Source of the DNA: Deltaproteobacteria bacterium
Lineage (GTDB): Bacteria > Chloroflexota > Dehalococcoidia > Dehalococcoidales > BS750m-G39
Reading direction: 5' to 3'
DNA length: 64,000 nt
Assembly (NCBI GenBank): GCA_030603275.1
Contig: JAUVYB010000008.1
Span: 98 to 64,097, forward strand
The translations under genes were made by a program, and so were the position numbers. Shown one piece after another: positions 2,289 to 46,939 of this stretch (the stretch's first letter is position 1; every line of letters starts with the position of its first letter). The notes under the pieces were generated by a model. That model did not search any database, was not told the origin of the DNA, and worked only from the letters and a program-made list of their open reading frames with translations.

Positions 2289-2437
2289 TTATTTATCGCC
2301 TCCTGGAATAAAGATTCACCGCGGACGCTATATCTCGTCGCCGCTAAGGTTGCTTTAAAGGGGTTGTAATTATCCCTGTTATAATTGTTCCCGCTATAAT
2401 TATACCCGATAGTGAGAGTTGGAATCAAATTAGGAAT

Positions 2438-2467
2438 TTGACAACCCCCCTGAATCCGGCCTATAAT
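2438..2467 (+). promoter_or_regulatory. sigma-70-type promoter for marR-MMPL operon (TTGACA-18-TATAAT)
   Basis: Exact TTGACA at 2438-2443 and TATAAT at 2462-2467. AATATT...AATATT inverted hexamers lie in the leader at about 2485-2510. Confidence 0.6.
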
Positions 2468-2526
2468 AATTAGGTCTAACCGTAATATTGCCTTTTGGCG
2501 AAATATTATTGCAGAGGGAGCGTGAT

Positions 2527-2985
2527 ATGAAGCAGGGCGAGCAGGAGATGGTCAAACGAATCCAAAAGCTTTCGGGGGATATATTCAATGCTATGCCCTC
2601 CGATATTCCGGCGGAGTGGCTGAGTTTAGACCTGACCCTGGCCCAGCTGCGGGCGCTGTTGGTGCTCAAGGCTAAAGGCCCCAGCCGGATGAGCGCCATC
2701 GCCGCCGTGCTCGGCATCGCTCTGCCTACCGCCACCGGCATCGTTGATAATCTGGTCAGGAAAGAGTTGGCCGTGCGTGAGACTGACCCCCAGGACCGGC
2801 GGCTGGTCATCTGCGAACTGTCTACGCGGGGACAGGATTTGATAAACCGGCTCTGGACATCGGGTGAGTTCGGCATGGAACAGCTCCTTGAGGGGCTGAC
2901 ATCTGACCAGATGGAGAAGGCTGTCGATGTAGCCCAGATGCTCTTTGATAATTTATCCCGTAAAACGGGTGGAGAAGCAACTTGA
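2527..2985 (+). CDS. MarR family transcriptional regulator
   Basis: Winged-helix pattern LTLAQLRALLVL...MSAIAAVLGIALPTATGIVDNLVRKELAVRETDPQDRR. The ATG at 2527 has a GGGAG RBS. The track ORF starts at 2488 on a non-ATG codon. Confidence 0.85.
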   Translation: MKQGEQEMVKRIQKLSGDIFNAMPSDIPAEWLSLDLTLAQLRALLVLKAKGPSRMSAIAAVLGIALPTATGIVDNLVRKELAVRETDPQDRRLVICELSTRGQDLINRLWTSGEFGMEQLLEGLTSDQMEKAVDVAQMLFDNLSRKTGGEAT

Positions 2986-5408
2986 TAAAGCGGTTCTCGG
3001 CGGCACTGGCGCGGTTCATTAAGCGCTGGCCCTGGTTAATAATAGCGGTCGCCCTGTTACTCTCGGCGGCGGCGGTACCGGGCGTTACCATGCTGGAGAC
3101 GGAGACCGGTTTTGCCGCCTTAGTTTCACCCGATTCGAAGATAGCCCAGGACAACGCTCGCTACCAGGAGCAGTTCGGCGGGGAGCCGATTACCGTTCTG
3201 CTTACCGGGCAGCTTGACGATATATTCTCCACCCAAAACCTGGCCATCCTCTCCGATTTTGAACAGGAATTCTCCGGTGATGAGTGTTACCGTGCCATTA
3301 ACGGCCCGCTGACTATTTTACAGTTAGCCCAGCAGGAAACCGAACAGGCCATGCGGGCCTTTGAAGAGCAGCTTGCCCTGGCCCAGGAACAGGCGGCGGA
3401 GGCCAGAGCGGCGGCGGCGGCAATGGGGCTTGGCGAGGCGGAGCAGGAGATAGCCGCCGAACAAGCGCGGGCTGAGGTTCTGCAAAAGCTCCAGCCCCAG
3501 ATAGAGCAGCTGCAGCTCATTGGCGAACCCTCGCTGGACAACCCCGCCTTTATCGCCTCGGTCCTCTACGATGCCGAAGGCGCCGTCAGCCCGGTGATGC
3601 AATCTTTCGTTCCCGATATCGCCCATGCCCTCATCAGCGTTACCCCCCGGGGGAACATGAGCGACCAGGAATCCCTACAGGCGGTCATTGATATTGAAGC
3701 TTTCTTCTCCAGCTATCCCCTGGACGGGGTAGAGGTTACCGTAGTCTCGGATGCCAAGCTGGTGGACGCCATCAGTAACAGCATCGGCAATAATATAAAT
3801 GTCCTGCTGGCGCTGTCGGTGGCTGTTATGGTGCTTATCCTGGTATTCATGTTCCGGGTGCGCTGGCGGCTGCTCTCCCTGGGTATGGTAGGATTAAGCG
3901 CCCTGTGGACCTTCGGTCTGATGGGCTATCTGGGGGTGCCGCTCACTATGGCTACCATGGCGGCGCTGACGATACTGCTCGGTCTGGGAATAGATTTTTC
4001 CATACAGTTCCACAACCGTTATCAGGAAGAGGTTGCCAGGAGCGAGACCGTCGGTGAAGCCATGGTTACTTCAATCTCAAACATGTTTCCCACTATAGGC
4101 ATTGCCCTGCTGGCAACCATAATCGGCTTTATCACGCTGTACATATCCGAGGTGCCCATGATACGCCAGTTCGGCATGATGCTGGCTACCGGCATCGTCA
4201 TCAGCTATATCGTCGCCCTCTTTCTATTGCACAGCATCGTCTACCTGGGCGATAAGAAAATAGAAATTAAAAAGCTAAAAGAGGCGGCGTCAAAGGCAAG
4301 CGGCCGAATCGAGCGCATTTTACTGCGCCTGGGCAAGCTGGTGATTAACCATACCCTCTGGATTTTCATTGTGGCGGTGGCTTTCGCCGTTGGCGGTGGC
4401 ATTGTCGACCACTGGCTGCCCACCAATACCGACTATGAGGACTTGATGCCTCAGAGTACGCCGGCGCTGGTAGAGCTGAGGGAGATGCGCCAGATTGTCG
4501 GCATCGGGGGGACGGTACACCTCATGGTGGAGACCGGTGATGTCACCACCCCGGCGGTACTCAGCTGGTTGAAAGACTATGGGGATAACGCTCTATCGGC
4601 CCACCCCGAGATTATTTCGGCCAGCAGCCTGGCGACAGTGGTCAGCACCGCCGCCGGAGGGGTAATCCCCGCCCAGCCCCAGATCGATGCCATACTGGAA
4701 AGCATTCCCCAATCCTATCTGGCGCCGCTCCTCTCCGGCGACCGCAGTATGGCCGGCGTCTCGTTCAACATAGAGTACATACCCATGGAAGAGACCCATG
4801 ACCTTTTAGTGCTTTTACAGGAAGAGGCCAGCCCCCCGTCCGGGGTGAGCATTTCACCGGTGGGCAGTCTTGCCCTCGGGGCGAGCACGATGGATGCTTT
4901 AGTCGGCGCCAGGATGACCATGAATCTCATCTGCCTGGGAGCGATACTCCTGGTGCTTCTGGTGGTTTACCGTCGTCTGGGCAGCATCATCTTCACCATC
5001 ATACCGGTCGGGGCCGTCATTGCCTGGTCCTCGCTGGACATGTATCTCATCGGTATTCCCCTTAACCCGCTTACCGCCATTCTGGGTGTGCTTATCATCG
5101 GCATCTGTACCGAGTTCATGGTGCTGCTCATGGGGCGCTATGAGGAAGAGAAAAGGCGGGGAGTGCCCCCTAAAGAGGCCATGGTTACGGCCATCTCAAA
5201 GATAGGGCGGGCCATTGTCACCACCGCCCTGACCACCCTGGGGGGGTTCGGGGTGCTGATAGCCTCCAGCTTTGTCATGATCCGTGATTTCGGCATCGCC
5301 ACCGTGATCAGCGTTTTCCTCAGCCTGCTGATAACGATTACGGTAATGCCCGGGCTGATTGTCTGGTACGATGAGTGGCGGCAGAGGCGCCGCACCGGTA
5401 AGGCCTAG
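2982..5408 (+). CDS. MMPL/RND-superfamily membrane transporter
   Basis: 808 aa with two blocks of about 5-6 TM helices separated by large loops. It has an Ala/Gln/Glu coiled-coil-like insert and a 4-nt overlap with marR. Confidence 0.8.
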   Translation: MIKRFSAALARFIKRWPWLIIAVALLLSAAAVPGVTMLETETGFAALVSPDSKIAQDNARYQEQFGGEPITVLLTGQLDDIFSTQNLAILSDFEQEFSGDECYRAINGPLTILQLAQQETEQAMRAFEEQLALAQEQAAEARAAAAAMGLGEAEQEIAAEQARAEVLQKLQPQIEQLQLIGEPSLDNPAFIASVLYDAEGAVSPVMQSFVPDIAHALISVTPRGNMSDQESLQAVIDIEAFFSSYPLDGVEVTVVSDAKLVDAISNSIGNNINVLLALSVAVMVLILVFMFRVRWRLLSLGMVGLSALWTFGLMGYLGVPLTMATMAALTILLGLGIDFSIQFHNRYQEEVARSETVGEAMVTSISNMFPTIGIALLATIIGFITLYISEVPMIRQFGMMLATGIVISYIVALFLLHSIVYLGDKKIEIKKLKEAASKASGRIERILLRLGKLVINHTLWIFIVAVAFAVGGGIVDHWLPTNTDYEDLMPQSTPALVELREMRQIVGIGGTVHLMVETGDVTTPAVLSWLKDYGDNALSAHPEIISASSLATVVSTAAGGVIPAQPQIDAILESIPQSYLAPLLSGDRSMAGVSFNIEYIPMEETHDLLVLLQEEASPPSGVSISPVGSLALGASTMDALVGARMTMNLICLGAILLVLLVVYRRLGSIIFTIIPVGAVIAWSSLDMYLIGIPLNPLTAILGVLIIGICTEFMVLLMGRYEEEKRRGVPPKEAMVTAISKIGRAIVTTALTTLGGFGVLIASSFVMIRDFGIATVISVFLSLLITITVMPGLIVWYDEWRQRRRTGKA

Positions 5409-36672: not shown

Positions 36673-39636
36673 CTACAGCTTCGCCACCTTGATTACCAGC
36701 ACTATCATGGTAATCAGCATGGCCATCATCACCAGCATAAAGACCAGGAACATTATGCCCCCCATCGGCATAATCAACTCCGTCCAGTCAAAAGCGCTGG
36801 TCTGTGGCGGTGGAGGCGGCTCCAGTGGCGGTTCCGCCTCTAAAGGCGCTGGACCGGTAGAGAAGGCGCCGACGGCGCTCCAGGCGCTGTGAGTATCGCC
36901 GTTTACCGCCCTCACCTTCCAGTAGTAGGTGGTATCGTAGTCCAGGCTTACGTTGCACTGCCAGGCGGTGCTGGCCAGGGTGTAGCTATCGGTCTTGAGG
37001 ATGGTGGGGTTGTCAAACTCGGCCCGGGTGGAAACCACCAGCTCGTAGCTATCGGCGCCGGCGATGGCGCTCCACTGGAAGATGGGCTTTACCGAAACGG
37101 CGCTGGCGCCGGCCTCGGGGCTTTCCAGCAGCGGGGCCAGGACCTCACTGCCGATGCTGGTGGTAAAAGACCACTTATCCGACCAGGGGCTTAACACCGG
37201 CTCGGTGACCCTCACCCGCCAGTAGCAGGTGGTGCCCGGTTCCAGGGCGGGCAGCTGGGCGGTGCTGGCCTTGGTATCGCCCTCAAAGCCTAAGGGGACG
37301 GCGGAAAAATCGGTGTCGTAGTCAAGCTGCCATCGGTACTGGTCGGCGCCCTCCAGCGTCTCCCAGTCGAGGCTTACATTTCGGGCGGTGTCGTTAACCA
37401 GGGTGCCCACGCCCGGCGCTTTATCTCCCGGTGAGGTGAGGCTGACCGGCTGGGTCAGGCTGTCGTAGTAGCTCACCAGCCTCGTATTAGCGCTGTCAAC
37501 CGACCACAGCCGGTGCCCGGCCAGCCACAGCCCGGCCAGCTTAGCCCCCTCGTCCAGCCCCTTGGTCACGGTCTCAAAGGTCGGCCCCAGGGAGTAGGTC
37601 GGGTTAAGGCAGCGCTCCATGCCCCCGTCCGCCTTAAAATTACTGGCGTACAGGGTGCCCTCGCCGGAGACTATTAGCTGACCGAGCATACCCTCGGCGG
37701 GGCTGTCGATAGCCTCCCAGCGTTCGCTCTTGCCGATGATAAAGCGGTAGATACTCTCCCCCTCGGTGTCGCCGGCGGCATAGACGGTGCTATTATCGCT
37801 GTAACCGGGGTCAAGGGCGACTGTTACCGTGCCGTTCAGCGGGCTTGAGGCGGCCTCTGGCGGCAGCGACTCGAACGAGGCACCGTTATCCCTGGACCAG
37901 TACACCCGGCCGTCCTTATTGCCGATTAAGACGGTCTCGTCCTGTTCGTAGCTTGGGGATAAGACTATGGAGTTCAGCGGTTGGCTGCCGGCAACTTCCC
38001 CGTCGGAGTAGCTCAGGCCGCTGTTGGTGGTTAGGTAGACCCGCCCGTTAGTGCCGTCGTAGCTGCCGATAAACAGGCTGTCGTCACCAGCCACCGCCCA
38101 GCAATCAATGGGGAAGCGGGCAATCTTACGCTTAAAGCTCTGCCCGTTATCGGTTGACTTCCATACCGCCGCTTTGCCGTTGCTAGAGCCGGTCAAGAAG
38201 ACCACCTGGCTGTCTTCGTCGTACTGCGGGGAAAGCGCCACCCGGTCAATCTCGTCCACATCGGCCAGGGCGCTGGTGTAGGTCCTCTCCCAATCGGCTC
38301 CCCCGTTAAGGCTGCGCCAGAGGCTGTGGGCGCCGGCGGTATAGTAGGTGAGCATAAAGAGGCTGTTATCCCGGTTGTAGTGAGGCGACGGCGCCAGGTC
38401 AACTATATCTTCGATGACGGTATCGATAAAGCTTAGCTGGTTCCAGATGAGGCCGCCGTCCCGGCTTATGGAGAAGGCGCTCTCGGTGCCGCTGGTGGCG
38501 GCGTAAACCAGCCCGTTAGCCATAAGCAGGTAGGTCTGGCCATCTCCGGTGGGCGGTTTGGCGCTCTTCTCCCAGTTCTGGCCGCCGTCCTGGCTGAGGT
38601 AGATATCGGTACTGCCGGCGGCGCCGGCGATAAGATAAGCACTGTCAGCCTTGCCGCTGACCGCCAGGCCGATGACGTCAACATTGTCAACGTATTCAGC
38701 TTGGCCTATGTCGAGGTCAATAGCCAGCGACTTTGCCGGTGCCGCTTTCCCCATAATCCGGTAAACATCGCCGTTCTCACTGCCGGCGTCAATGCCGATA
38801 AACAGGACGCAGGCACTATTGGGCACATCGCAGTTGTAGTCATCAGGGAAAACGATGATGGCCGAGGTATCCACGGCTACCGAAACAGCAGTCATCGAGT
38901 TATCCTGGTTCAGCCGGGCGTCGCCGATAGCGGCGCCCCACGCCTGGTCAGCGATTTTGCCGGTAACAAAGGTATCAACCTCGTCGGTAACCACCGCCAC
39001 CAGCTGGCCGTCGTCGGTGTGGTTAGGCGAAAAGGCGATGTCATAAACATCGTAGTTGCCCACCCCGGCGTCGGTCCAGGCGAAGGGGCTGTCGGGTTTA
39101 AGCAGGTAGACGCCGCCAAACTCACCCCCGTCTTTATCTCTGGTGCCCACGGCGATGATGTTGCTGTCCGGTTCGGCAAAATCCCTGGCTATATCCAGAG
39201 AGGTAATTTCAATGTTGTTATCCCCCGCCCCGCCCGGGCCCTTCGGCAGGGGCAGGAAGCTCTCGGCGCCGTCGTCGGACTCGTAGACCCGGGAGGCGGT
39301 GGCGTAGTAGACCAGGCTGGCGTCATCGGGGGCGGTAGCTATAGCGACGATATCGTCGGCCACTTCGCCCCTGGCCTGCCAGCTATAGCCGTCGTCCACC
39401 GAGCTATAAAGGGTGTAGTCCAGCCCTTGGCCGCAGGCGTACAGGGTGCCGTCGTTGGCCATGGTAAGGTGCTGTATATCGGAACCCCAGGCCAGCCCCC
39501 AGTCCCCCTTTTCGCCATCGGCGGGGACATTAACCCGCGACCATTTTAACAAATCGGGGGCGGCCGCAGCCGGGGTGGTGAAGCTGCTCAATATTAACAG
39601 GAGAAGCCCTAGAGTTATCGCCGTTGCTTTCGCCAT
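36673..39636 (-). CDS. giant surface protein: signal peptide, Asp-box (BNR) beta-propeller region, two FN3-like modules, Pro-rich linker, C-terminal TM anchor
   Basis: Asp-box-like motifs include SVDDGYSW, SQDGGQNW, SRDGGLIW, SLNGGADW, STDNGQSF and SRDNGASF. Two roughly 85-aa modules end in YWRVR/YWKVR..W. The C-terminal hydrophobic helix is LIMPMGGIMFLVFMLVMMAMLITMIVLVI. The ATG at 39636 gives a signal peptide. Confidence 0.8.
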   Translation of the reverse strand: MAKATAITLGLLLLILSSFTTPAAAAPDLLKWSRVNVPADGEKGDWGLAWGSDIQHLTMANDGTLYACGQGLDYTLYSSVDDGYSWQARGEVADDIVAIATAPDDASLVYYATASRVYESDDGAESFLPLPKGPGGAGDNNIEITSLDIARDFAEPDSNIIAVGTRDKDGGEFGGVYLLKPDSPFAWTDAGVGNYDVYDIAFSPNHTDDGQLVAVVTDEVDTFVTGKIADQAWGAAIGDARLNQDNSMTAVSVAVDTSAIIVFPDDYNCDVPNSACVLFIGIDAGSENGDVYRIMGKAAPAKSLAIDLDIGQAEYVDNVDVIGLAVSGKADSAYLIAGAAGSTDIYLSQDGGQNWEKSAKPPTGDGQTYLLMANGLVYAATSGTESAFSISRDGGLIWNQLSFIDTVIEDIVDLAPSPHYNRDNSLFMLTYYTAGAHSLWRSLNGGADWERTYTSALADVDEIDRVALSPQYDEDSQVVFLTGSSNGKAAVWKSTDNGQSFKRKIARFPIDCWAVAGDDSLFIGSYDGTNGRVYLTTNSGLSYSDGEVAGSQPLNSIVLSPSYEQDETVLIGNKDGRVYWSRDNGASFESLPPEAASSPLNGTVTVALDPGYSDNSTVYAAGDTEGESIYRFIIGKSERWEAIDSPAEGMLGQLIVSGEGTLYASNFKADGGMERCLNPTYSLGPTFETVTKGLDEGAKLAGLWLAGHRLWSVDSANTRLVSYYDSLTQPVSLTSPGDKAPGVGTLVNDTARNVSLDWETLEGADQYRWQLDYDTDFSAVPLGFEGDTKASTAQLPALEPGTTCYWRVRVTEPVLSPWSDKWSFTTSIGSEVLAPLLESPEAGASAVSVKPIFQWSAIAGADSYELVVSTRAEFDNPTILKTDSYTLASTAWQCNVSLDYDTTYYWKVRAVNGDTHSAWSAVGAFSTGPAPLEAEPPLEPPPPPQTSAFDWTELIMPMGGIMFLVFMLVMMAMLITMIVLVIKVAKL

Positions 39637-39643
39637 ATGGCAA

Positions 39644-39672
39644 ATTCTAGTCACCTGTTGGACGCAAGTCAT
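39644..39672 (-). promoter_or_regulatory. promoter (ATGACT-17-TAGAAT), -10 is 7 nt from the ATG at 39636
   Basis: The reverse complement reads ATGACTtgcgtccaacaggtgacTAGAATttgccatATG. Confidence 0.4.
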
Positions 39673-39686
39673 AGAACATTGTTCTA
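39672..39686. promoter_or_regulatory. perfect 7-1-7 palindrome TAGAACA-T-TGTTCTA abutting the -35 region
   Basis: Read directly from the sequence. It lies 36-50 nt upstream of the surface-protein start codon. Confidence 0.4.
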
Positions 39687-39713
39687 CCCCACCCCGTTAT
39701 GCAGGGGAAAAGG

Positions 39714-39742
39714 GGAAGCCCCCCGCACTGCGGGGGGCTTCC
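39714..39742 (-). terminator. intrinsic terminator hairpin after the 39793-43101 gene
   Basis: 13-bp perfect GC-rich stem ggaagccccccgc/gcggggggcttcc with a 3-nt loop, followed on the minus strand by CCTTTTCC. Confidence 0.6.
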
Positions 39743-39792
39743 GGTATTGGCTTAAGGTGTTACCCTTTTAGCTACCTAACAGGTTAGTACCG

Positions 39793-42700
39793 TCAGGGTA
39801 CTCTCCTGGTGGTGACTATCAGGACTATCACCGCAATTACCAATATGGCGCCGATGATAACTATCGCCCAGATCCAGGCAGGAGTTATCACGTCAGGTTG
39901 CTCCACTACTATCGGTGGTGGTGCATCAGTAACCACGGGTGGCGTACCCATGGTAGTGAATGTACCAACATCACTCCATGGAGTATCGGTATCAACACCA
40001 ATAGCCTTCACATGCCAGTAGTAGCGAGTTTCGTAATCAAGGGTGGTATCGCACTTCCAGGCAGTGCTGACCAGAGAGTCGGTACCGACCAGTGCCACCA
40101 GAGGCGCAGCGAAGTAACCGCCGGCAGTGGTCGTTGGGTCAATGGCGAGCTCGTACTCGTAAACCTCTGCCCACTCAATGCCAGACCACTCAAAGGTCGG
40201 GCTTAGAGGAACATCAGGCTCGCCGGGCCATGGCGCCTGCAGGTCAGGTCGTGCCATAGAGGCACCGATAGCCGTCTTGAACTTCCAGGTCTCAGACCAG
40301 GGAGAAATCAGCGGTGCGCCGATAAGGCTACCCTGATTAGCAACCCTCACCCTCCAGTAGTAGGTCATGTTGGGATTGAGTGTCAGAGGCGGTGTTGCCA
40401 GTGATCTGGTGTAGCTATTAGGTGGAGTCACCACGGTCTTGAAGGCGGCGTCAATGGCTACCTGGTACTGGTAGCTGGTAGCGCCGGCCATCTCCTGCCA
40501 GGCTAGGTTGACTTCGGGATACACATAGCCCTCAGGCAGCAGCCCGACTCCGGTTTCATCCGCAGCCGGCATTGCCAGCGGCACACCGACGTTCAAAATG
40601 TCGGTGAACATTACTACCTGATCCCAGTAGTTGGCAGGGAGAGCAGCGCCGTTGAAGCAGAAGAATGTCGGTGCCAGTGCCGGTGGCGCTAGGTCCAGGC
40701 TCAGCAGCCCGAGTGCGTCGCCGGTATCAAGTCCCTTGTTCTCCCTCTCAAAGTAGGGTGGAACAACGCTGTCGGTATCGGCGGTGGCATTGGTGCTGCG
40801 CCACAGGCCGCCCTCGTCAGTGCCCACAGTCGTGGCGTCGATTGCGTAGAGGACGCCGCTGGGCGGCAGGGCTATCGCCGGTCCGCCGGCTGTAAAGTTG
40901 CTCTCGTCGTAAACCACGGCACCCGTGGAATCCTGGTTGTTATCTATCCGCTCCCACTCGGCATCGCCGGGGTTGTCAAGGTCAACCACGCAGCGCATTA
41001 CACCCTGATCGATACCAACGGGGGTGGTGGCGTAGAGGATGCCGTTGCCGGCAAAGCCGAGGTCAGAGGTGGCTATTGTCGGCAGGCCGGTGAAGGGGTT
41101 GTCAGTCCCCACATTCTCCACCGTCTCGCCGCCGTCGCTGGAGATGAACACTCCACCCACAGCGCCGATAAGGACGACATCTCCCATAATGCCTATATTG
41201 ATTATCCCAGCCGCAGCCGGAATCTCACTGTCGTCGGGTTTGTTCCAGCCCGTGCCGGACCTGGTCGTCCACCATATCTCGCCTGCGCTACCGGTGTAGA
41301 GCGTCGTCGCCGATACGGGGGCAACCGTTGTCAGAGGTGTCTTGGCGGATATCTTCTTCGGGAAGGTGGTGCCCATGTCGGTTGACCGCCAGATCAATTC
41401 GGCACCCAGGTCGGTAGCGAACATGGCGCTGCCGTCCCCCAGGATGTCAAGCCGGTTTAGCCCGTCGGTCACGCCGGGGGTGGCGTAGGAGAGTATCCTC
41501 TCCCAGTTCTTGCCGTCAATTCTGCCCCACAGCGCGCCGTCGTTGGCGTCAACCTGGGTAATCGCCCACAGCGTGCCGTTGGCGTTGTAGCCGTTGGCGC
41601 TGAAGCCCGTCGGAGCTGTGATGGCGTAGCAAGGCTCGTCTAAGGTGTCATCAAAGCCGTAGTCTATTATGCTTATCTGGTTCCAGCTCGCGTTGCCGTT
41701 GGTGGTGCGCTGGAAGGCGTCGGTCATGTAGCCCCAGGTTGATGCGTAGGCCAGACCGCTGTCACAGTAGCCGGGCGCCATCAGCACCCCGGTGTTGACA
41801 CGCTGGTATTGTAGGTTAGGCGCATTCTCGGCTCCGCCGGTGGGGCACTTGAAGGAGAACATCCAGCTATCGCCGCTGTCCTCACTGTGGTAGGTGGACC
41901 AGCACGCCGGCGTATCGGTCAGGTCTATGAGGTCGGTGCCCACCAGTATGGTGGCTGCCTCGGCATCGCCGCACACGTCAATGCTGGTAACCGGCGTTGA
42001 CGTCGGCAGCAGGGTGGTGATTACCCCCCTCACGTCAAGGTCTATCGTCGAGGAGGGTCCCGCCTCCTTGAGCACTACCTTGTAGGCGTCGCTGCCGCCA
42101 TTTTCATTAAAGTTAACGCCCAGGTTTCCGAGGAAACCGTTTTCAACTATGCCCGCGAAGCAGACGTTGTTGCCGATGCCGAATGCGTCAAAGTCGTCGG
42201 GGAAGGCAATCTTGGCCCAGTCCGAATCGAAAGGAGTGCCCCAGGCATTGGTGAAGGGTCCGTTGGAGATGTCGTCTCCCCATTCACCGCCGTCAGCGAC
42301 GTTGGCGAAGGAGAACGTCATCGTGGTTGTCCAAGGGCTATCGTAGTCGGTGACTATGGCGCAGATGCCTATGTCGCCGTCAGCTGCGAAGGTGGGCAGG
42401 AAGGCGCAGGCCAGCACATTGTCGGTGGCGTCAAGGGGTGGGTCAGCGGCAATAAGCTGTGGCGTCCAGGCCAGCAGCCCCGATGTCACGTATACTTCGG
42501 GCTCGGTGGTGGCCACTATTAATGACAGGTCGCCGTCCTCGGCGATGGCTATATCCAGATCGTTAATAGTGCCGCCCCAGGGGTCATTAAGCGCAGTAAA
42601 GTTCTTGCCGCCGTCCTCCGAAATGTAGACGAAGTCCTCGGTGGCTACGGCCAGGGTGGTGTCGTCGTCGTACTCCGGCGAGGTCACGATGTCCACTATG

Positions 42701-43101
42701 GGGTCGCCAGTCACAGCATCATCGTAGAAGCCGGTGACTATCCAGGAGTAGCCGCCGTCGGTGGACTTCAGCAGGTGGAACCAGCTGGAGCCGAGGTAGA
42801 AGCCGTCAGCCACCGCCGCGAACAGGATGCCGCCGTCGGGCGTCTGGGCTATCGGCCCTAGGTCAGCCGCCGGTGTCGCCCAGAAATCGCCCTCGGAGTC
42901 AGCAAACTCGCCGGCGAGAATGGTGGTGCCGTAGCTCGTATAAGTGGCGCCGTAGTCCTCAACCTTGGGCAGTTCCAGCTTGGTAAACTTCAGGTTGCTG
43001 GAAGCCGCTCCGGCCGGGACTCCTGCCAGGCCAACTGTTAGGCTGGCCAGCAGCACCACTGTCAGGGCCACTCCCACTATTTTATAAAGTTTTGTTTTCA
43101 T
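39793..43101 (-). CDS. giant surface protein, paralog of 36673-39636
   Basis: Asp-box-like motifs include STDGGYSW, SEDGGKNF, SEDSGDSW, TTNGNASW, STDMGTTF and SSDGGETV. Two YYWRVR/YYWHVK modules and a C-terminal TM (WIWAIVIIGAILVIAVIVLIV) with a TTRRVP tail. The ATG at 43101 (MKTKLYKIVG...) is preferred over the TTG at 43158. Confidence 0.8.
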   Translation of the reverse strand: MKTKLYKIVGVALTVVLLASLTVGLAGVPAGAASSNLKFTKLELPKVEDYGATYTSYGTTILAGEFADSEGDFWATPAADLGPIAQTPDGGILFAAVADGFYLGSSWFHLLKSTDGGYSWIVTGFYDDAVTGDPIVDIVTSPEYDDDTTLAVATEDFVYISEDGGKNFTALNDPWGGTINDLDIAIAEDGDLSLIVATTEPEVYVTSGLLAWTPQLIAADPPLDATDNVLACAFLPTFAADGDIGICAIVTDYDSPWTTTMTFSFANVADGGEWGDDISNGPFTNAWGTPFDSDWAKIAFPDDFDAFGIGNNVCFAGIVENGFLGNLGVNFNENGGSDAYKVVLKEAGPSSTIDLDVRGVITTLLPTSTPVTSIDVCGDAEAATILVGTDLIDLTDTPACWSTYHSEDSGDSWMFSFKCPTGGAENAPNLQYQRVNTGVLMAPGYCDSGLAYASTWGYMTDAFQRTTNGNASWNQISIIDYGFDDTLDEPCYAITAPTGFSANGYNANGTLWAITQVDANDGALWGRIDGKNWERILSYATPGVTDGLNRLDILGDGSAMFATDLGAELIWRSTDMGTTFPKKISAKTPLTTVAPVSATTLYTGSAGEIWWTTRSGTGWNKPDDSEIPAAAGIINIGIMGDVVLIGAVGGVFISSDGGETVENVGTDNPFTGLPTIATSDLGFAGNGILYATTPVGIDQGVMRCVVDLDNPGDAEWERIDNNQDSTGAVVYDESNFTAGGPAIALPPSGVLYAIDATTVGTDEGGLWRSTNATADTDSVVPPYFERENKGLDTGDALGLLSLDLAPPALAPTFFCFNGAALPANYWDQVVMFTDILNVGVPLAMPAADETGVGLLPEGYVYPEVNLAWQEMAGATSYQYQVAIDAAFKTVVTPPNSYTRSLATPPLTLNPNMTYYWRVRVANQGSLIGAPLISPWSETWKFKTAIGASMARPDLQAPWPGEPDVPLSPTFEWSGIEWAEVYEYELAIDPTTTAGGYFAAPLVALVGTDSLVSTAWKCDTTLDYETRYYWHVKAIGVDTDTPWSDVGTFTTMGTPPVVTDAPPPIVVEQPDVITPAWIWAIVIIGAILVIAVIVLIVTTRRVP

Positions 43102-43308
43102 CGACCTTAAATTATCCTCCTTATGTTGTTCCCCACATGAAGGGCAATTACCCCTCAATATGGAGACAAGGTTATAGTTTTTCTCGAAGTTAGACTCCTT
43201 TCCCTCGGGCTTAACTGCCCTTGGGCTCTCACCATCGCATCACCTCCTTTTAAAGTTATATCAATATATCAAAACTTTTCAGTTGTCAACCTGCTCATTG
43301 ATGTCTGA

Positions 43309-43959
43309 CTAGCTAGGAGGTGCATACAGCGGGCAGGTGTCCATCAGCTCGTCCTCATCCTCGTCGAAGCTCTCGTCGCCGTCGTCAACCCAGGCTCTCA
43401 CCGAGATGGCGCCAGAAAAGCTAGGTACGGTTGTTGGTTCATAGAAGGCGCCGCAACTGTTGGTCGTAACTTCTTCCCAAAGCGTATTATCGTCGCAGTA
43501 GGTTATGAAGACGAGCTCATTCTCCGGGAAGCCGGAGCCCAGGATTACCACAGGCTTTCCCGAGTAGCCATACCATGTAACTATAAACTTATCTTCAAAA
43601 GAACCATAGAAGTCGTCCACGTAGGGGTGGCCATACGAAGGGTCATCGTCGTAGCCATAATACACGTCGTAGCCGTACATCAACGTGTTTGTCTCCCCAA
43701 TCACTATCTCGGCTGCCGGGCCAATTTCACCTTGTGATCCGGCTGGTCCCGCTGGTCCCGCTGGTCCCGCTGGCCCTGGTAATCCCCTGGCTCCATCTGT
43801 GCCTGGCGGTCCCATAGGTCCGCGCTCACCCTTCTCGCCCTGGGCGCCGGTTGCTCCGGCTGGCCCGGATGAGCCCTGCGGTCCGGGGCAAGCGGTCAGT
43901 GGCACCACAATTAAAGCTATAATTATCAAAAAGGCAATTATCTTGCCTGCTTTCTTCAT
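43309..43959 (-). CDS. collagen-like lipoprotein 1
   Basis: Signal peptide with lipobox-like LTAC, 19 uninterrupted G-X-Y triplets (GPQGSS...GEIGPA), then a Tyr/Asp-rich globular C-terminus of about 130 aa. Confidence 0.8.
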
Positions 43960-44097
43960 TTCGCCTCCTTAAGATTCAGGATATCCTCAGAAATTCTCCC
44001 GTTTAGTCTTTTCCTTATATAGTCACCCCCTTTACCTTTAGAAATTACAATTTTACCCACACTACACCCATAGCGTGGCTGTAAACGCTCGCTAACT

Positions 44098-44125
44098 ACT
44101 ATATCACAAGTTCGCCGTTTGTCAA
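44098..44125 (-). promoter_or_regulatory. sigma-70-type promoter of collagen-like gene 1 (TTGACA-16-TATAGT)
   Basis: The reverse complement reads TTGACAaacggcgaacttgtgaTATAGT. It implies a 5' leader of about 130 nt. Confidence 0.55.
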
Positions 44126-44203
44126 GCCCCAAATCATATCTCGCCCCGCCCCTCCTCCGGGGCTGGCAAGTTAACCGTTTTTCCTCTCGCCGGCTGGTAG
44201 AAA

Positions 44204-45265
44204 CTAATCAATTCCTATTGCTATCCAGCTGACCTCGGTAGCAGTGGTGCACGCGACGATAGCAGGAGGACCCGTGAGGTCTATCTCCCACACATAGATG
44301 TCAATCAGGCCGCCGCTTGTGCCGTCATACCAGGTGGCGAGGGCCCAGTCGGCGCTTGCCGAGTTAGCCCTTATTGTCAGCACGCACTCTGTGACTGATG
44401 AAAGCCCGGTATCAATGTCGGTAACGGAGCCGGTGAAGGTAGTGCCGCCCCAGGCTACCGTGCGGCCGGCGCTCTCACCCATGAGTGCGTTGGTGACGTC
44501 GGGACTAATCTTGGAGCCGTCTATAGCCGCCGTCCCGCTGATATCCTCATTAACTATTGCGGAATTCCCTATCTCCAGTGAGCCCACGGCATTGAAATCT
44601 ATGTCCTCTCTCTGGATTGTTCTGTCGTCTATATCCTCGGACAAGATCGACTCGTTGATTATCTCAGCGGAGCCAACCGAATTATCAGCCATCTCAGCAT
44701 TGCCTATGGCGTTGTCGGCCATCTTGCCCCAGGTCACCGCATTGTTGTCTATCTTTTCCTCGGTCACCGCCTCAGTGGCCAGGTCAGCGGTGTCAACCTC
44801 GCCGTCAAGTATTTTGGCCGTGGTCACCGCATCGTCGGCAAGCTGCGCTGTGCCAACGCTCCCGTCAAAAATATCGGCGCCGTCAATCTTCTCCAGGTCA
44901 CCGGCGTGGCGCCAGTCGCTCAGGTGGATTAAACCGGATAGAAGAATCTTGGCCGGGTCGATGTCAGCCGTATCGCTGATATCGGCATCAACTATTGTGC
45001 CGTCGGCTATCTTACCCGAGGTCACCGCGCCGCCGGCTATCTTGGCCGCGGTTATGGCGCCGGTTCCGATTTGCGGCTGACCGGCTGGTCCCGCTGGCCC
45101 CTGTGTGCCTGGCGGTCCGGATGGTCCCCGTGGCCCTGTTGCCCCCGGGGCTCCGGCTGGTCCGGCTGGTCCGGTTGCTCCCTGCCCTGTAGGGCAAGCT
45201 GTTAAGGGCACCACAAATAAAGCGATAATTATTAAGAAACCAACTATCTTAACTGCTTTCTTCAT
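44204..45265 (-). CDS. collagen-like lipoprotein 2
   Basis: The leader is nearly the same as in gene 1 (MKKAVKIVGFLIIIALFVVPLTAC). It has 12 G-X-Y triplets, about 18 tandem 9-10-aa repeats of the type AVTxxKIxDG, and a distinct C-terminal domain. Confidence 0.8.
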   Translation of the reverse strand: MKKAVKIVGFLIIIALFVVPLTACPTGQGATGPAGPAGAPGATGPRGPSGPPGTQGPAGPAGQPQIGTGAITAAKIAGGAVTSGKIADGTIVDADISDTADIDPAKILLSGLIHLSDWRHAGDLEKIDGADIFDGSVGTAQLADDAVTTAKILDGEVDTADLATEAVTEEKIDNNAVTWGKMADNAIGNAEMADNSVGSAEIINESILSEDIDDRTIQREDIDFNAVGSLEIGNSAIVNEDISGTAAIDGSKISPDVTNALMGESAGRTVAWGGTTFTGSVTDIDTGLSSVTECVLTIRANSASADWALATWYDGTSGGLIDIYVWEIDLTGPPAIVACTTATEVSWIAIGID

Positions 45266-45343
45266 TTCGCCTCCTTTAGATTTAAGCGTTTTTCGCCATA
45301 AATTAACTGGTTGATTATACCATAACTGTCAACACTTACAACT

Positions 45344-45371
45344 TTTATAACAGAAGTTAGCCATTTGTCAA
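45344..45371 (-). promoter_or_regulatory. sigma-70-type promoter of collagen-like gene 2 (TTGACA-16-TATAAA)
   Basis: The reverse complement reads TTGACAaatggctaacttctgtTATAAA. A second candidate, TTGTAA-16-TATAAT, lies at 45314-45341. Confidence 0.5.
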
Positions 45372-45390
45372 GTCCTTTTACTTTTATTTA

Positions 45391-45518
45391 TCAACCTCAC
45401 CCCCTGTATGCACCCTAAAAAATCTTTGATTTTTCAGGGAACCCGCTGTATCCCCCTCTCCAAGAGTGGAGAGGGGGAATAAAAGAAAAGAGGGGCTAAC
45501 GCCCCTCTTAAACACCCC
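45391..45518 (+). repeat. family A repeat copy A8 interrupted by a 42-nt nested family C-like hairpin
   Basis: Compared with copy A5 (ctcaccccctgtatccccctctcc), 45410-45451 is an insertion. It is bounded by a duplicated ctgtat (45404-45409 and 45446-45451). Confidence 0.75.
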
Positions 45519-45650: not shown

Positions 45651-46913
45651 CTATGTCTCTTTGGTCAGGTTAGCCAGGAACTCGGCGTTGGACTTGGTCC
45701 GGCGCATGCGGTCAAGCACCCGCTCGGTGGTCTCGGCAAAGTTGACGGAGTCAGAAGCAATTATGGAAGCCATACGCCTCAGCAGCCGTACCTGCTTCAG
45801 TGTCTCCTCGTCCAGCAGCAGCTCCTCGCGCCGGGTGCTACTGCGCTGAATATCCATTGCCGGGAAGACGTGGCGCTCCGCCAGCCGGCGGTCCAGGTGA
45901 AGCTCCATATTCCCCGTTCCCTTAAACTCCTCATAGATAAGCTCGTCCATGCGGCTGCCGGTATCTATGAGGCAGGTGGCGATGATGGTCAGGCTGCCGC
46001 CCTCATCCATGTTGCGGGCGGCCCCGAAGAAACGCTTGGAGGGGTGAAGGGCCGCCGGGTCGATACCGCCGGATAGAGTACGCCCGCTGGGAGGCATGGC
46101 CAGGTTATAGGAGCGGGTGAGGCGGGTAATGCCGTCGAGCAAAATCACCACATCCCGGCCCGTCTCCACCATCCGCTTGGCTTTCTCCAGCGCCAGCTCG
46201 GCGACGCGGGTGTGGTTCTCCACCGGCTCGTCGAAGGTAGCCGCTATCACCTCCCCCTTCACCGACCGCCTCATGTCGGTAACCTCCTCCGGCCGCTCTC
46301 CGATGAGGCAGACCATGATATCAATATCGCTGTAGTTGGTGCTGATGGCGTTGGCGATAGATTTAAGCAGAATCGTCTTACCGGCTTTAGGCGGCGATAC
46401 AATCAGGCCCCTCTGTCCCCGGCCGATGGGGGCGATGAGATTTATAAGTCGGGTGGACAGGTCTTCGGAGGCGGTCTCCAGGTTGATCAGTTTATCGGGG
46501 TAGGTAGGCGTCAGCGCCCCGAAATGGGGCCGTTTCTTGGCCATCTCGGGGTTAATATCGTTAATTGCCTCCACCCGGACCAGCCCGTAGTATTTCTCGC
46601 CGTTTTTCGGCGGCCGGCCCTGGCCGGCGACGACATCGCCGGTGCGCAGGCCGAAGCGGCGGATTTGGGATTGAGAAACGTAGACGTCCGCCGAGCTGGG
46701 CAGCAGGCTGCCCTGTCTCAGGAAGCCGTAGCCCTCGGCGGTAATCTCCAGGGTGCCGCCGCAGAAGATAAAGCCCTGGCTCTCGGCGTTGGCCTGAAGC
46801 AGGCGCATGACCAGCTCCTGCTTCTTGAGGCCGGTGTAGCTGGATATACCTACACCCTTGGCCAGCTCCAGCAGCTCCTCCCGGCTTTTAGTTTCCAGTT
46901 CGGTAATATTCAT
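45651..46913 (-). CDS. rho: transcription termination factor Rho
   Basis: N-terminus [19 protein letters not shown], Walker A PPKAGKT and RNA-binding domain motifs. The ATG at 46913 has a GGAGGT RBS. Confidence 0.96.
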
Positions 46914-46939
46914 GTTATTGCTACCTCCACCCTCCATGG

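Follow-up and report, generated by a model that had tools for sequence, protein, structure and literature searches.

The stretch of DNA analysed here, hereafter the window, comprises 64,000 nucleotides (nt) of contig JAUVYB010000008.1 from an uncultured Dehalococcoidales bacterium, whose genome assembly (GCA_030603275.1) is 1.52 Mb in size and 93% complete. On its minus strand lies a pair of intact open reading frames (ORFs), called gene A and gene B below, which encode two collagen-like lipoproteins (Table 1). Both proteins have the same layout, in which a leader ending in a lipobox is followed by an uninterrupted run of collagen-type G-X-Y triplets and then by a C-terminal head, and the heads of the two proteins are unrelated to each other. 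We found that the pair belongs to a larger modular family in which a single type of leader carries at least six classes of heads, and that the tips have demonstrably been exchanged by recombination within the shared stalk. Members of this family are annotated as hypothetical proteins in the source records, and our literature search found no paper that ties collagen-like proteins to Dehalococcoidia or describes a junction between a lipobox and a collagen run. Because genes A and B are the only collagen-like ORFs of the genome and are also the only two ORFs that match the leader profile, the common layout of the two could not be attributed to chance. Further copies of the leader elsewhere in this genome, which the previous sequence-only reading had considered worth looking for, were therefore not found.

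Table 1. Features of the collagen-like lipoprotein locus and the borders of its gene slot (window positions)
Feature	Position	Strand	Basis
Gene A, 216-amino-acid (aa) collagen-like lipoprotein with Ig-like head	43309..43959	-	ORF; >100 full-length metagenomic relatives
Gene A leader, residues 1-24, lipobox L-T-A-C	43888..43959	-	leader profile, E = 3.8e-17
Gene A collagen run, 19 G-X-Y triplets (residues 26-82)	43714..43884	-	triplet count, Pfam
Gene A hypervariable Tyr/Asp/Gly-rich insert (residues 83-132)	43564..43713	-	mean pairwise identity 0.17
Gene A C-terminal Ig-like (IPT/TIG-like) beta-sandwich (residues 133-213)	43321..43563	-	AF2 pLDDT >90
Gene A promoter-like site, TTGACA-16-TATAGT with TG	44098..44125	-	promoter scan, 11/12 matches
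Gene B, 353-aa collagen-like lipoprotein with tail-fibre-type head	44204..45265	-	ORF; close full-length relatives P0002-P0005 with the same leader
Gene B leader, residues 1-24: MKKAVK n-region, hydrophobic core, lipobox L-T-A-C	45194..45265	-	leader profile A6, E = 1.9e-15
Gene B collagen run, 12 G-X-Y triplets (residues 29-64)	45074..45181	-	triplet count, Pfam
Gene B array of ~16 ten-residue repeats (AVTxxKIxDG type, residues 70-258), 28-aa interruption at 108-135	44492..45058	-	segmentation
Gene B C-terminal knob (residues 259-353)	44207..44491	-	AF2 pLDDT ~40
Gene B promoter region: TTGACA block homologous to that of gene A, plus TTGTAA-16-TATAAT with extended -10	45314..45375	-	
rho, upstream border of the variable slot	45651..46937	-	synteny
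Pair of giant Sortilin-like BNR/Asp-box proteins (S-layer-type, membrane-anchored at the C-terminus) that border the slot downstream	36673..43158	-	Pfam, synteny

The similarity of the two genes is concentrated in their 5' parts. The leader of gene B (MKKAVKIVGFLIIIALFVVPLTAC) is identical to that of gene A at 20 of 24 residues, the 14 nt around the start codon (AAGGAGGCGAAATG) are the same in both genes, and a direct repeat of 184 nt (43793-43976 and 45099-45282, 77% identity) spans the ribosome-binding site (RBS), the leader and the proximal part of the collagen run, in agreement with the near-identical RBS and leader that had been noticed from the sequence. Upstream of this repeat, a promoter block of 36 nt containing a TTGACA element is also present in two copies (44094-44129 and 45340-45375, 81% identity). 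Of the TTGACA promoters proposed for the two genes, that of gene A was recovered as TTGACA-16-TATAGT (11 of 12 matches); the best site of gene B in the promoter scan was TTGTAA-16-TATAAT, and its TTGACA lies in the duplicated block further upstream, ahead of a TATAAA. Both leaders follow the plan MKKAxK, 15 hydrophobic residues and L-T-A-C, which satisfies the lipobox consensus [LVI][ASTVI][GAS]C, and in family alignments of 29 and 18 members the lipobox reads L-(T/A/V)-A-C with Cys24 and Ala23 invariant. The genome encodes both Lgt (PF01790, E = 1.9e-51) and the signal peptidase II LspA (PF01252, E = 1.5e-31), both above the model cut-offs, so the machinery for lipoprotein maturation is available. 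The neighbouring 894-aa protein, which had been thought to use a similar leader, turned out to lie outside the leader family: its PLTGC is an ordinary lipobox of the kind found in about 18 ORFs of the genome, many of them with Cys-Pro, and the leader profile did not match this protein at E <= 0.001. Codons 4-10 of gene A (43932-43948) also contain a hairpin with a 6-bp stem (GGCAAG-AUAAU-UGCC type) followed by a T-run. Across several genera, A-type genes have either the same hairpin sequence or changes that preserve the stem, whereas B-type leaders lack it; it could act in translation or attenuation, or could just result from conservation of the peptide.

As the sequence-only reading had described, the lipobox Cys is followed almost at once by G-X-Y triplets, and the run starts within 1-4 residues of it (19 triplets in gene A and 12 in gene B, compared with 13-36 in relatives). 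Against the Pfam Collagen model (PF01391, cut-off 27.2 bits), gene A scored above the cut-off with 39.3 bits and gene B below it with 22.2 bits. A collagen triple helix rises by 0.29 nm per residue, and the computed rod lengths are ~16 nm for gene A, ~10 nm for gene B and up to about 30 nm for relatives.

Behind the stalk the two proteins are unrelated. BLASTP showed no similarity beyond residue ~83, and hhalign of the two head alignments gave a probability of 0.05%, so that the complete divergence of the heads noticed previously also held under a sensitive comparison. In head A, the Tyr-rich insert (15% Tyr) varies between 13 and 84 aa in length across relatives. It was modelled by AlphaFold2 (AF2) with a predicted local distance difference test score (pLDDT) of ~50, within a model (mean pLDDT 76.7) in which residues 5-22 form a helix, the collagen part is extended and residues 133-213 fold into a sandwich of six to seven strands. 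Invariant positions of this Ig domain include G141, F144, C155, C169, G170 and F172, and there is also an acidic DDGDxxFDxDxDEL loop. When head A was compared by Foldseek with the PDB and with viral models, only generic Ig-like folds (CARDB, PKD, Big and FN3; best E-value 1.1e-3) were obtained, and no C1q/TNF structure was listed among the matches. No Pfam family, TIG (PF01833) included, matched head A at E <= 1. A hidden Markov model (HMM) of this head did give weak matches (domain E 0.0016-0.014) to IPT/TIG repeats elsewhere in the genome, in two further surface proteins with membrane anchors, one of which itself matches TIG at 8.7e-22. On account of these matches, head A is best described as an Ig domain of a divergent, TIG-like type in which two cysteines are invariant.

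Head B is of a quite different kind. Its ten-residue repeats matched tail-fibre families of the PHROG database (phrog_892 at 8.5e-24 and phrog_28766 at 7e-22), and tblastn with these repeats retrieved annotated tail fibres in 58 phage records, including those of cyanophages and of Lactobacillus and Gordonia phages at 30-35% identity. Thus, the resemblance to phage fibres suggested in the sequence-only reading is real for gene B and does not extend to gene A, which matches PHROGs through its collagen run only. Residues 140-230 of gene B were modelled with pLDDT 80-90; Foldseek found no match for this model, which is not surprising for a monomer in an extended conformation. A C-terminus clearly similar to the knob was seen in P0005 alone of the sequences examined, and we found no Pfam or PDB match for the knob; the search of head B against Pfam at E <= 1 gave noise only, and sequence searches of both heads against the PDB returned nothing meaningful. 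An S74 domain was not found in either protein. A diversity-generating retroelement was also considered, since Mtd_N is present in some distant gene B relatives; the locus contains no template-like repeat of either head.

To see how widely this layout occurs, we ran a leader profile of 27 residues on 401 genomes sampled across the class. Strong matches were restricted to the GTDB family to which the window belongs, where they occurred in 17 of 30 genomes and 4 of 10 genera, with 1-14 copies each and, in one genome, a tandem array of six family genes. Among the proteins fetched, 109 have the leader together with the collagen stalk: 98 of them carry the A head, eight the B-type fibre repeat and three other heads, and NHL-propeller and Cys-rich repeat heads were observed in related genomes. 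At least six head classes therefore share one leader, namely the TIG-like, fibre-repeat and NHL-propeller heads, the P0278 type, P0313 (which weakly resembles the pseudopilin GspG) and the P0356 / G241:C34 type. The modular family that had been proposed from two genes is thus wider than the pair. A second profile, built from the leader plus 26 collagen residues, was searched against 1.84 billion representative sequences; long collagen proteins dominate the result and only about 23 of the 150 matches listed start at residue 1, but this search did help to find new heads. When residues 1-40 of gene B were used in a word-index search, nothing besides the query was retrieved. The unrelated metagenomic protein P0345 (1021 aa) also has a lipobox Cys that leads directly into G-X-Y triplets (…GALASC-GVQGPAG…), followed by long collagen runs and other repeats; hence, the lipobox-collagen junction exists outside this lineage as well.

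The most direct evidence for exchange of heads came from G424, a genome of the same genus in which one of the giant BNR proteins bordering the slot (999 aa, 36673-39672 in the window; BNR999) is 92% identical. The first slot gene of G424 is a chimera. Its 5' part, comprising the promoter, RBS, leader and ~13 triplets, is of the gene B type (up to alignment column 166, gene B is matched at 31 of 36 informative sites), whereas from there on it continues as gene-A-type collagen (33 of 34 informative sites A-like; Fisher p = 1.5e-13), which places the breakpoint between alignment columns 166 and 171, inside the collagen run. The same switch was observed in the protein, where residues 1-39 agree with gene B at 38 of 39 positions and residues 38-76 with gene A at 36 of 39, and the C-terminal part consists of a Thr-rich linker and an A-type head. 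The suggestion that the duplicated 5' module could allow recombinational head swapping is thus borne out by an actual recombinant. A second combination was found in P0213, in which an A-type 5' module is joined to a fibre-type head; taken together, these two cases indicate that module type and head type are not linked. Between gene A and its G424 counterpart, the leader is identical (24/24), the collagen run is 78% and the head only 32% identical, compared with ~92% for ordinary orthologues of these genomes. We found no leaderless silent head cassettes in the genome, only the weak TIG-domain relatives of head A in the two surface proteins mentioned above, and there was no sign of a phase switch at the locus: the spacers of the promoters are free of homopolymer tracts, and the genes are not enclosed by any convincing inverted repeats.

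The genomic position of the pair was also informative. The gene order pyrG-(lipoprotein)-tal-rho-(collagen genes)-BNR-BNR recurs across genera in at least nine contigs (the window, L001-L004, L007, G241:C28, G416:C9, L047 and L049), and we did not observe any phage gene between rho and the BNR genes in the syntenic contigs inspected. A prophage origin, under which the two genes would simply be tail fibres, was ruled out by this synteny. A related explanation is that gene B, and perhaps gene A, encodes a tail or head fibre that is assembled in the cytoplasm onto a phage or a particle like a gene transfer agent (GTA), and is encoded apart from the main cluster as are the RcGTA fibres. The matches of the gene B repeats to tail-fibre PHROGs and phage tail fibres fit this explanation, and collagen runs are common in phage fibres. 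However, the invariant lipobox leader would export the protein from the cytoplasm where such particles are assembled, the slot is without phage genes in at least nine contigs, the leader family is confined to 4 of the 10 genera of one family, and 98 of the 109 members have an Ig-like rather than a fibre head. We therefore consider a particle fibre very improbable.

The number of collagen genes in this slot is 0, 1, 2 or 6 across related genomes. In G402, G404, G415 and G427 the slot is empty, i.e. rho is directly followed by the first BNR gene, and both BNR genes are retained. The pair does adjoin putative S-layer genes as had been pointed out, with the two giant BNR/Asp-box genes directly downstream. 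Complete genomes from a different family within the order encode full-length homologues of BNR999; we infer that these homologues correspond to a published protein and that the giant BNR/Asp-box proteins are of the S-layer type. Such a neighbourhood raises the possibility that the collagen-like proteins are envelope struts, anchored by lipid and docking through their heads onto the BNR/Asp-box S-layer proteins, by which the distance between membrane and S-layer would be set. In three genera the family genes do lie immediately upstream of both BNR genes, although identity of the BNR proteins falls to 28-35%, and the rod lengths computed from triplet counts (10-27 nm) are of envelope scale. Nevertheless, four related genomes keep both BNR genes with an empty slot, the BNR proteins have C-terminal membrane anchors of their own, and the head types, which diverge or are replaced between close relatives, are too diverse for such struts. 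Moreover, other arrays of the family sit among housekeeping genes (uvrC, a GTPase gene, pcm and EF-G) away from any BNR gene, and the adjacency may reflect general regional synteny. A strut function is thus rather doubtful.

The segments of these proteins differ greatly in conservation. Among 29 A-type proteins, mean pairwise identity was 0.82 in the leader, 0.56 in the collagen run (0.39 without Gly), 0.17 in the insert and 0.32 in the Ig domain. In two control lipoproteins from the same genomes the order was reversed, their leaders (0.62 and 0.53) being less conserved than their mature parts (0.74 and 0.67). The leader is therefore the best conserved segment of the family, the opposite of what these two ordinary lipoproteins show. 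Comparison of the 24 leader codons of genes A and B revealed 14 identical codons, six synonymous differences and four non-synonymous ones; because six of the ten differing codons are synonymous, the codon pattern points to selection on the leader peptide rather than to a fresh duplication. In a test of synonymous sites, leader codon identity was 0.77-0.81 compared with 0.64-0.74 for rho, a comparison that is based on only 21-23 codons and does not demonstrate additional constraint at these sites. These data also bear on the possibility that the shared 5' module only survives from a recent tandem duplication and is without function. Adjacency of the two genes and duplication of the promoter block along with them are what such an event would leave behind. 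On the other hand, the synonymous differences in the leader speak against it, and it is contradicted by the retention of the same leader in different genera and in over 100 proteins from metagenomes, the heads of which are only 15-50% identical, so that it can hardly be credited.

Strong conservation of the leader is also an argument for a different topology. If the signal sequence were an uncleaved anchor, the products would be type II membrane proteins like the membrane collagens of eukaryotes, the conserved helix would trimerise within the membrane and register the three chains, and the Cys would have another role. The reversal of the conservation pattern relative to the two control lipoproteins fits such an anchor, as does the helix modelled by AF2 at residues 5-22. 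Nonetheless, the exact fit to the lipobox consensus with an invariant Cys and Ala at -1, the presence of the same ...AC-P junction in other predicted lipoproteins of the genome, and the genes for Lgt and LspA all favour ordinary lipoprotein processing, and we consider an uncleaved anchor unlikely. More generally, the constraint on the leader may reflect an uncleaved anchor, a specific role in export or registration, or selection tied to its use as a recombination handle.

Based on these results, we propose, with moderate confidence, that genes A and B encode lipid-anchored trimeric surface fibres in which a collagen stalk presents variable binding heads that would act as adhesins or receptor-binding modules. 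Each gene would be transcribed from a sigma-70-like promoter of its own and translated from a strong RBS, and the precursor would be exported, lipidated by Lgt at the lipobox Cys24 and relieved of its leader by LspA, which would leave a mature chain that begins with the lipidated Cys and enters the G-X-Y triplets within the next few residues. Three such chains could then wind into a collagen triple helix with the rod lengths computed above, extended in gene B by the fibre-repeat shaft. The rod would stand on the cytoplasmic membrane, facing outwards from a cell that has no wall and just this one membrane, and would place the C-terminal head at or beyond the S-layer formed by the neighbouring BNR/Asp-box proteins. 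The heads would be the binding modules: in gene A, an IPT/TIG-like Ig domain that bears the variable, Tyr-rich insert, and in gene B a phage-tail-fibre-type shaft with a knob. The module of promoter, RBS, leader and proximal collagen would be kept by selection and would serve at the same time as a homology handle for head exchange, gene duplication and gene loss. A role in adhesion or receptor binding is suggested by the kinds of heads (the Ig-like one with its insert rich in Tyr, the tail-fibre shaft and the NHL propeller), by the rapid turnover of the heads together with the presence/absence polymorphism of the genes, and by analogy with the BclA, Scl and Pcl proteins and with the Bdellovibrio MAT fibres (PMC10769870).

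Several points weigh against this proposal. No ligand can be inferred for any of the heads. The collagen run of gene B is short and falls under the Pfam cut-off, the knob formed by its last 95 residues was not confidently modelled, and the AF2 models are monomers, which cannot show trimers. To our knowledge, an Ig-like head is not among the known collagen trimerisation domains, which bears on how the triple helix would be nucleated in gene A. Finally, it is not obvious why a signal peptide that is cleaved off should be conserved more strongly than the rest of the protein, and the N-terminus could be uncleaved or have another role.

Collagen-stalked surface proteins and families of lipoproteins with a conserved leader are both known in bacteria, and the principle is not new; what is new here is the combination of the two, its restriction to one lineage, the inverted pattern of conservation and the documented exchange of heads. 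A G-X-Y stalk with a variable number of triplets and a globular head are also found in BclA and other exosporium proteins of Bacillus, streptococcal Scl1/Scl2, Legionella Lcl and the Pcl proteins of Pasteuria, the last of which are adhesins that form large polymorphic families and are used in attachment (PMC10987987). Unlike all of these, the proteins described here are anchored by an N-terminal lipobox, have no LPXTG, exosporium-targeting N-terminus or autotransporter, and occur in a wall-less, S-layered member of Chloroflexota; the head of gene A is Ig-like instead of a C1q/TNF-like jelly roll or a V domain. The likeness to exosporium proteins put forward in the sequence-only reading is thus one of architecture only. 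The NCBIfam models for Scl and Lcl gave 15-38 bits (cut-offs 325-500) and matched the collagen run only, and an LPXTG motif was absent from both proteins.

The MAT (mosaic adhesive trimer) proteins of Bdellovibrio bacteriovorus are phage-tail-fibre-like proteins with mosaic C-terminal tips that the bacterium carries on its own surface (PMC10769870). Like the family described here, they are multi-membered and present variable C-terminal tips on a common scaffold; however, they are long beta-prism/beta-helix trimers, many of which have an S74 chaperone, whereas the proteins studied here have a short collagen helix and a lipid anchor, and fibre repeats are limited to the minority type of gene B. 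In the Vsp and Vpma genes of mycoplasmas, the 5' untranslated region and the signal sequence are conserved. These and the related Vlp, Vsa and spma systems share with the present family a wall-less host and arrays of lipoprotein genes whose products diverge in the mature part but have a highly conserved signal peptide with its lipobox, and the number of vpma genes differs between strains as well (23 vs 6; PMC2824730). In contrast to the Mycoplasma lipoproteins, the genes studied here each have their own promoter, start with collagen instead of short tandem repeats, and lack a detectable phase-variation switch. With regard to phages, the shaft repeats of gene B are homologous to those of tail fibres (PHROG 892, 28766, 5073 and 6320; cyanophage S-TIM5, Synechococcus phage S-TIP37 and Lactobacillus phage LP65; E = 1e-9 to 1e-24), and its order of collagen run, shaft and knob is the same as in phage tail fibres that contain a collagen motif, yet gene B has a lipoprotein leader and occupies a chromosomal housekeeping slot with no virion genes nearby. 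Membrane collagens (XIII and XVII) and collagenous receptors (MARCO and SR-A) attach to the membrane at the N-terminus and carry an extracellular collagen stalk and a C-terminal ligand-binding domain. The layout is the same as in the present family, but these eukaryotic proteins are held by a transmembrane helix of type II and possess a coiled coil, whereas the present family has a lipobox and no coiled coil, and the two groups are unrelated by descent.

A broader interpretation, which we offer only tentatively and regard as rather unlikely, is that these genes form a recombination-driven variable-surface system of wall-less, S-layered Dehalococcoidales in which the unusually conserved cassette of promoter, RBS, leader and proximal collagen is the exchange handle for a pool of unrelated heads. 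If so, the lipid-anchored fibres would govern attachment of the cell and docking onto it, for example with mineral or organic particles, partner cells, phages or GTA-like particles of the lineage itself, and the system would be a free-living, environmental counterpart of the mycoplasma variable lipoproteins and the Bdellovibrio MAT fibres. Dehalococcoidia are abundant in the subsurface and in marine sediments and lack a peptidoglycan wall, and their contact with surfaces, partners and viruses has, as far as we know, been little studied. The family provides concrete candidates for surface fibres in these bacteria, with a natural variation of 0-14 copies per genome and at least six head types. 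In addition, the short, hydroxyproline-free collagen stalk with its small folded heads is a possible model for the nucleation of triple helices.

Some further observations were made in and around the slot. The last codons of gene A (PLYAP; 43317-43333) show 88-93% complementarity to a short repeat element that occurs twice upstream of gene B (45400-45414 and 45442-45458), so that weak inverted repeats flank the two-gene cassette; by a rough estimate, ~0.15 such matches are expected by chance. In L005 (8921-9829; G416:C4), a gene for a 302-aa tyrosine recombinase (Phage_integrase with a SAM-like N domain, XerC/D-like) lies directly downstream of three tandem A-type collagen lipoprotein genes. 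This recombinase may be a housekeeping Xer enzyme; a syntenic copy is probably present in L006, and there is none near the slot of the window. L005, which is from a Dehalococcoidales metagenome-assembled genome, also contains a 283-aa ORF (2418-3269) that matches the Pfam porin family PorA at 1.4e-28, which is odd for a presumed single-membrane bacterium.

Related loci were found in metagenome-assembled genomes labelled Dehalococcoidales or Dehalococcoidia, with one exception labelled Deltaproteobacteria. The exception, L002 (JABMRW010000057.1), has a Dehalococcoidales slot and a BNR999 that is 92% identical to that of the window, yet its record reads 'Deltaproteobacteria bacterium', and the bin is probably mislabelled or contaminated. 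Between the window and this locus, which belongs to G424, the first giant BNR protein (1121 aa, 39793-43158) is only 65% identical compared with 92% for the second; the hypervariable zone thus seems not to be limited to the collagen genes but to reach into the S-layer-type gene next to them. Elsewhere in genome G000, two proteins of ~550 aa (C7:48681-50354 and C48:34106-35728, both on the minus strand) have a signal peptide and three to four IPT/TIG repeats, and end in a 'YYWR(I/V)RAVD...W' FN3-like module with a membrane anchor, as do the giant BNR proteins, which suggests that several envelope proteins have an anchoring module in common.

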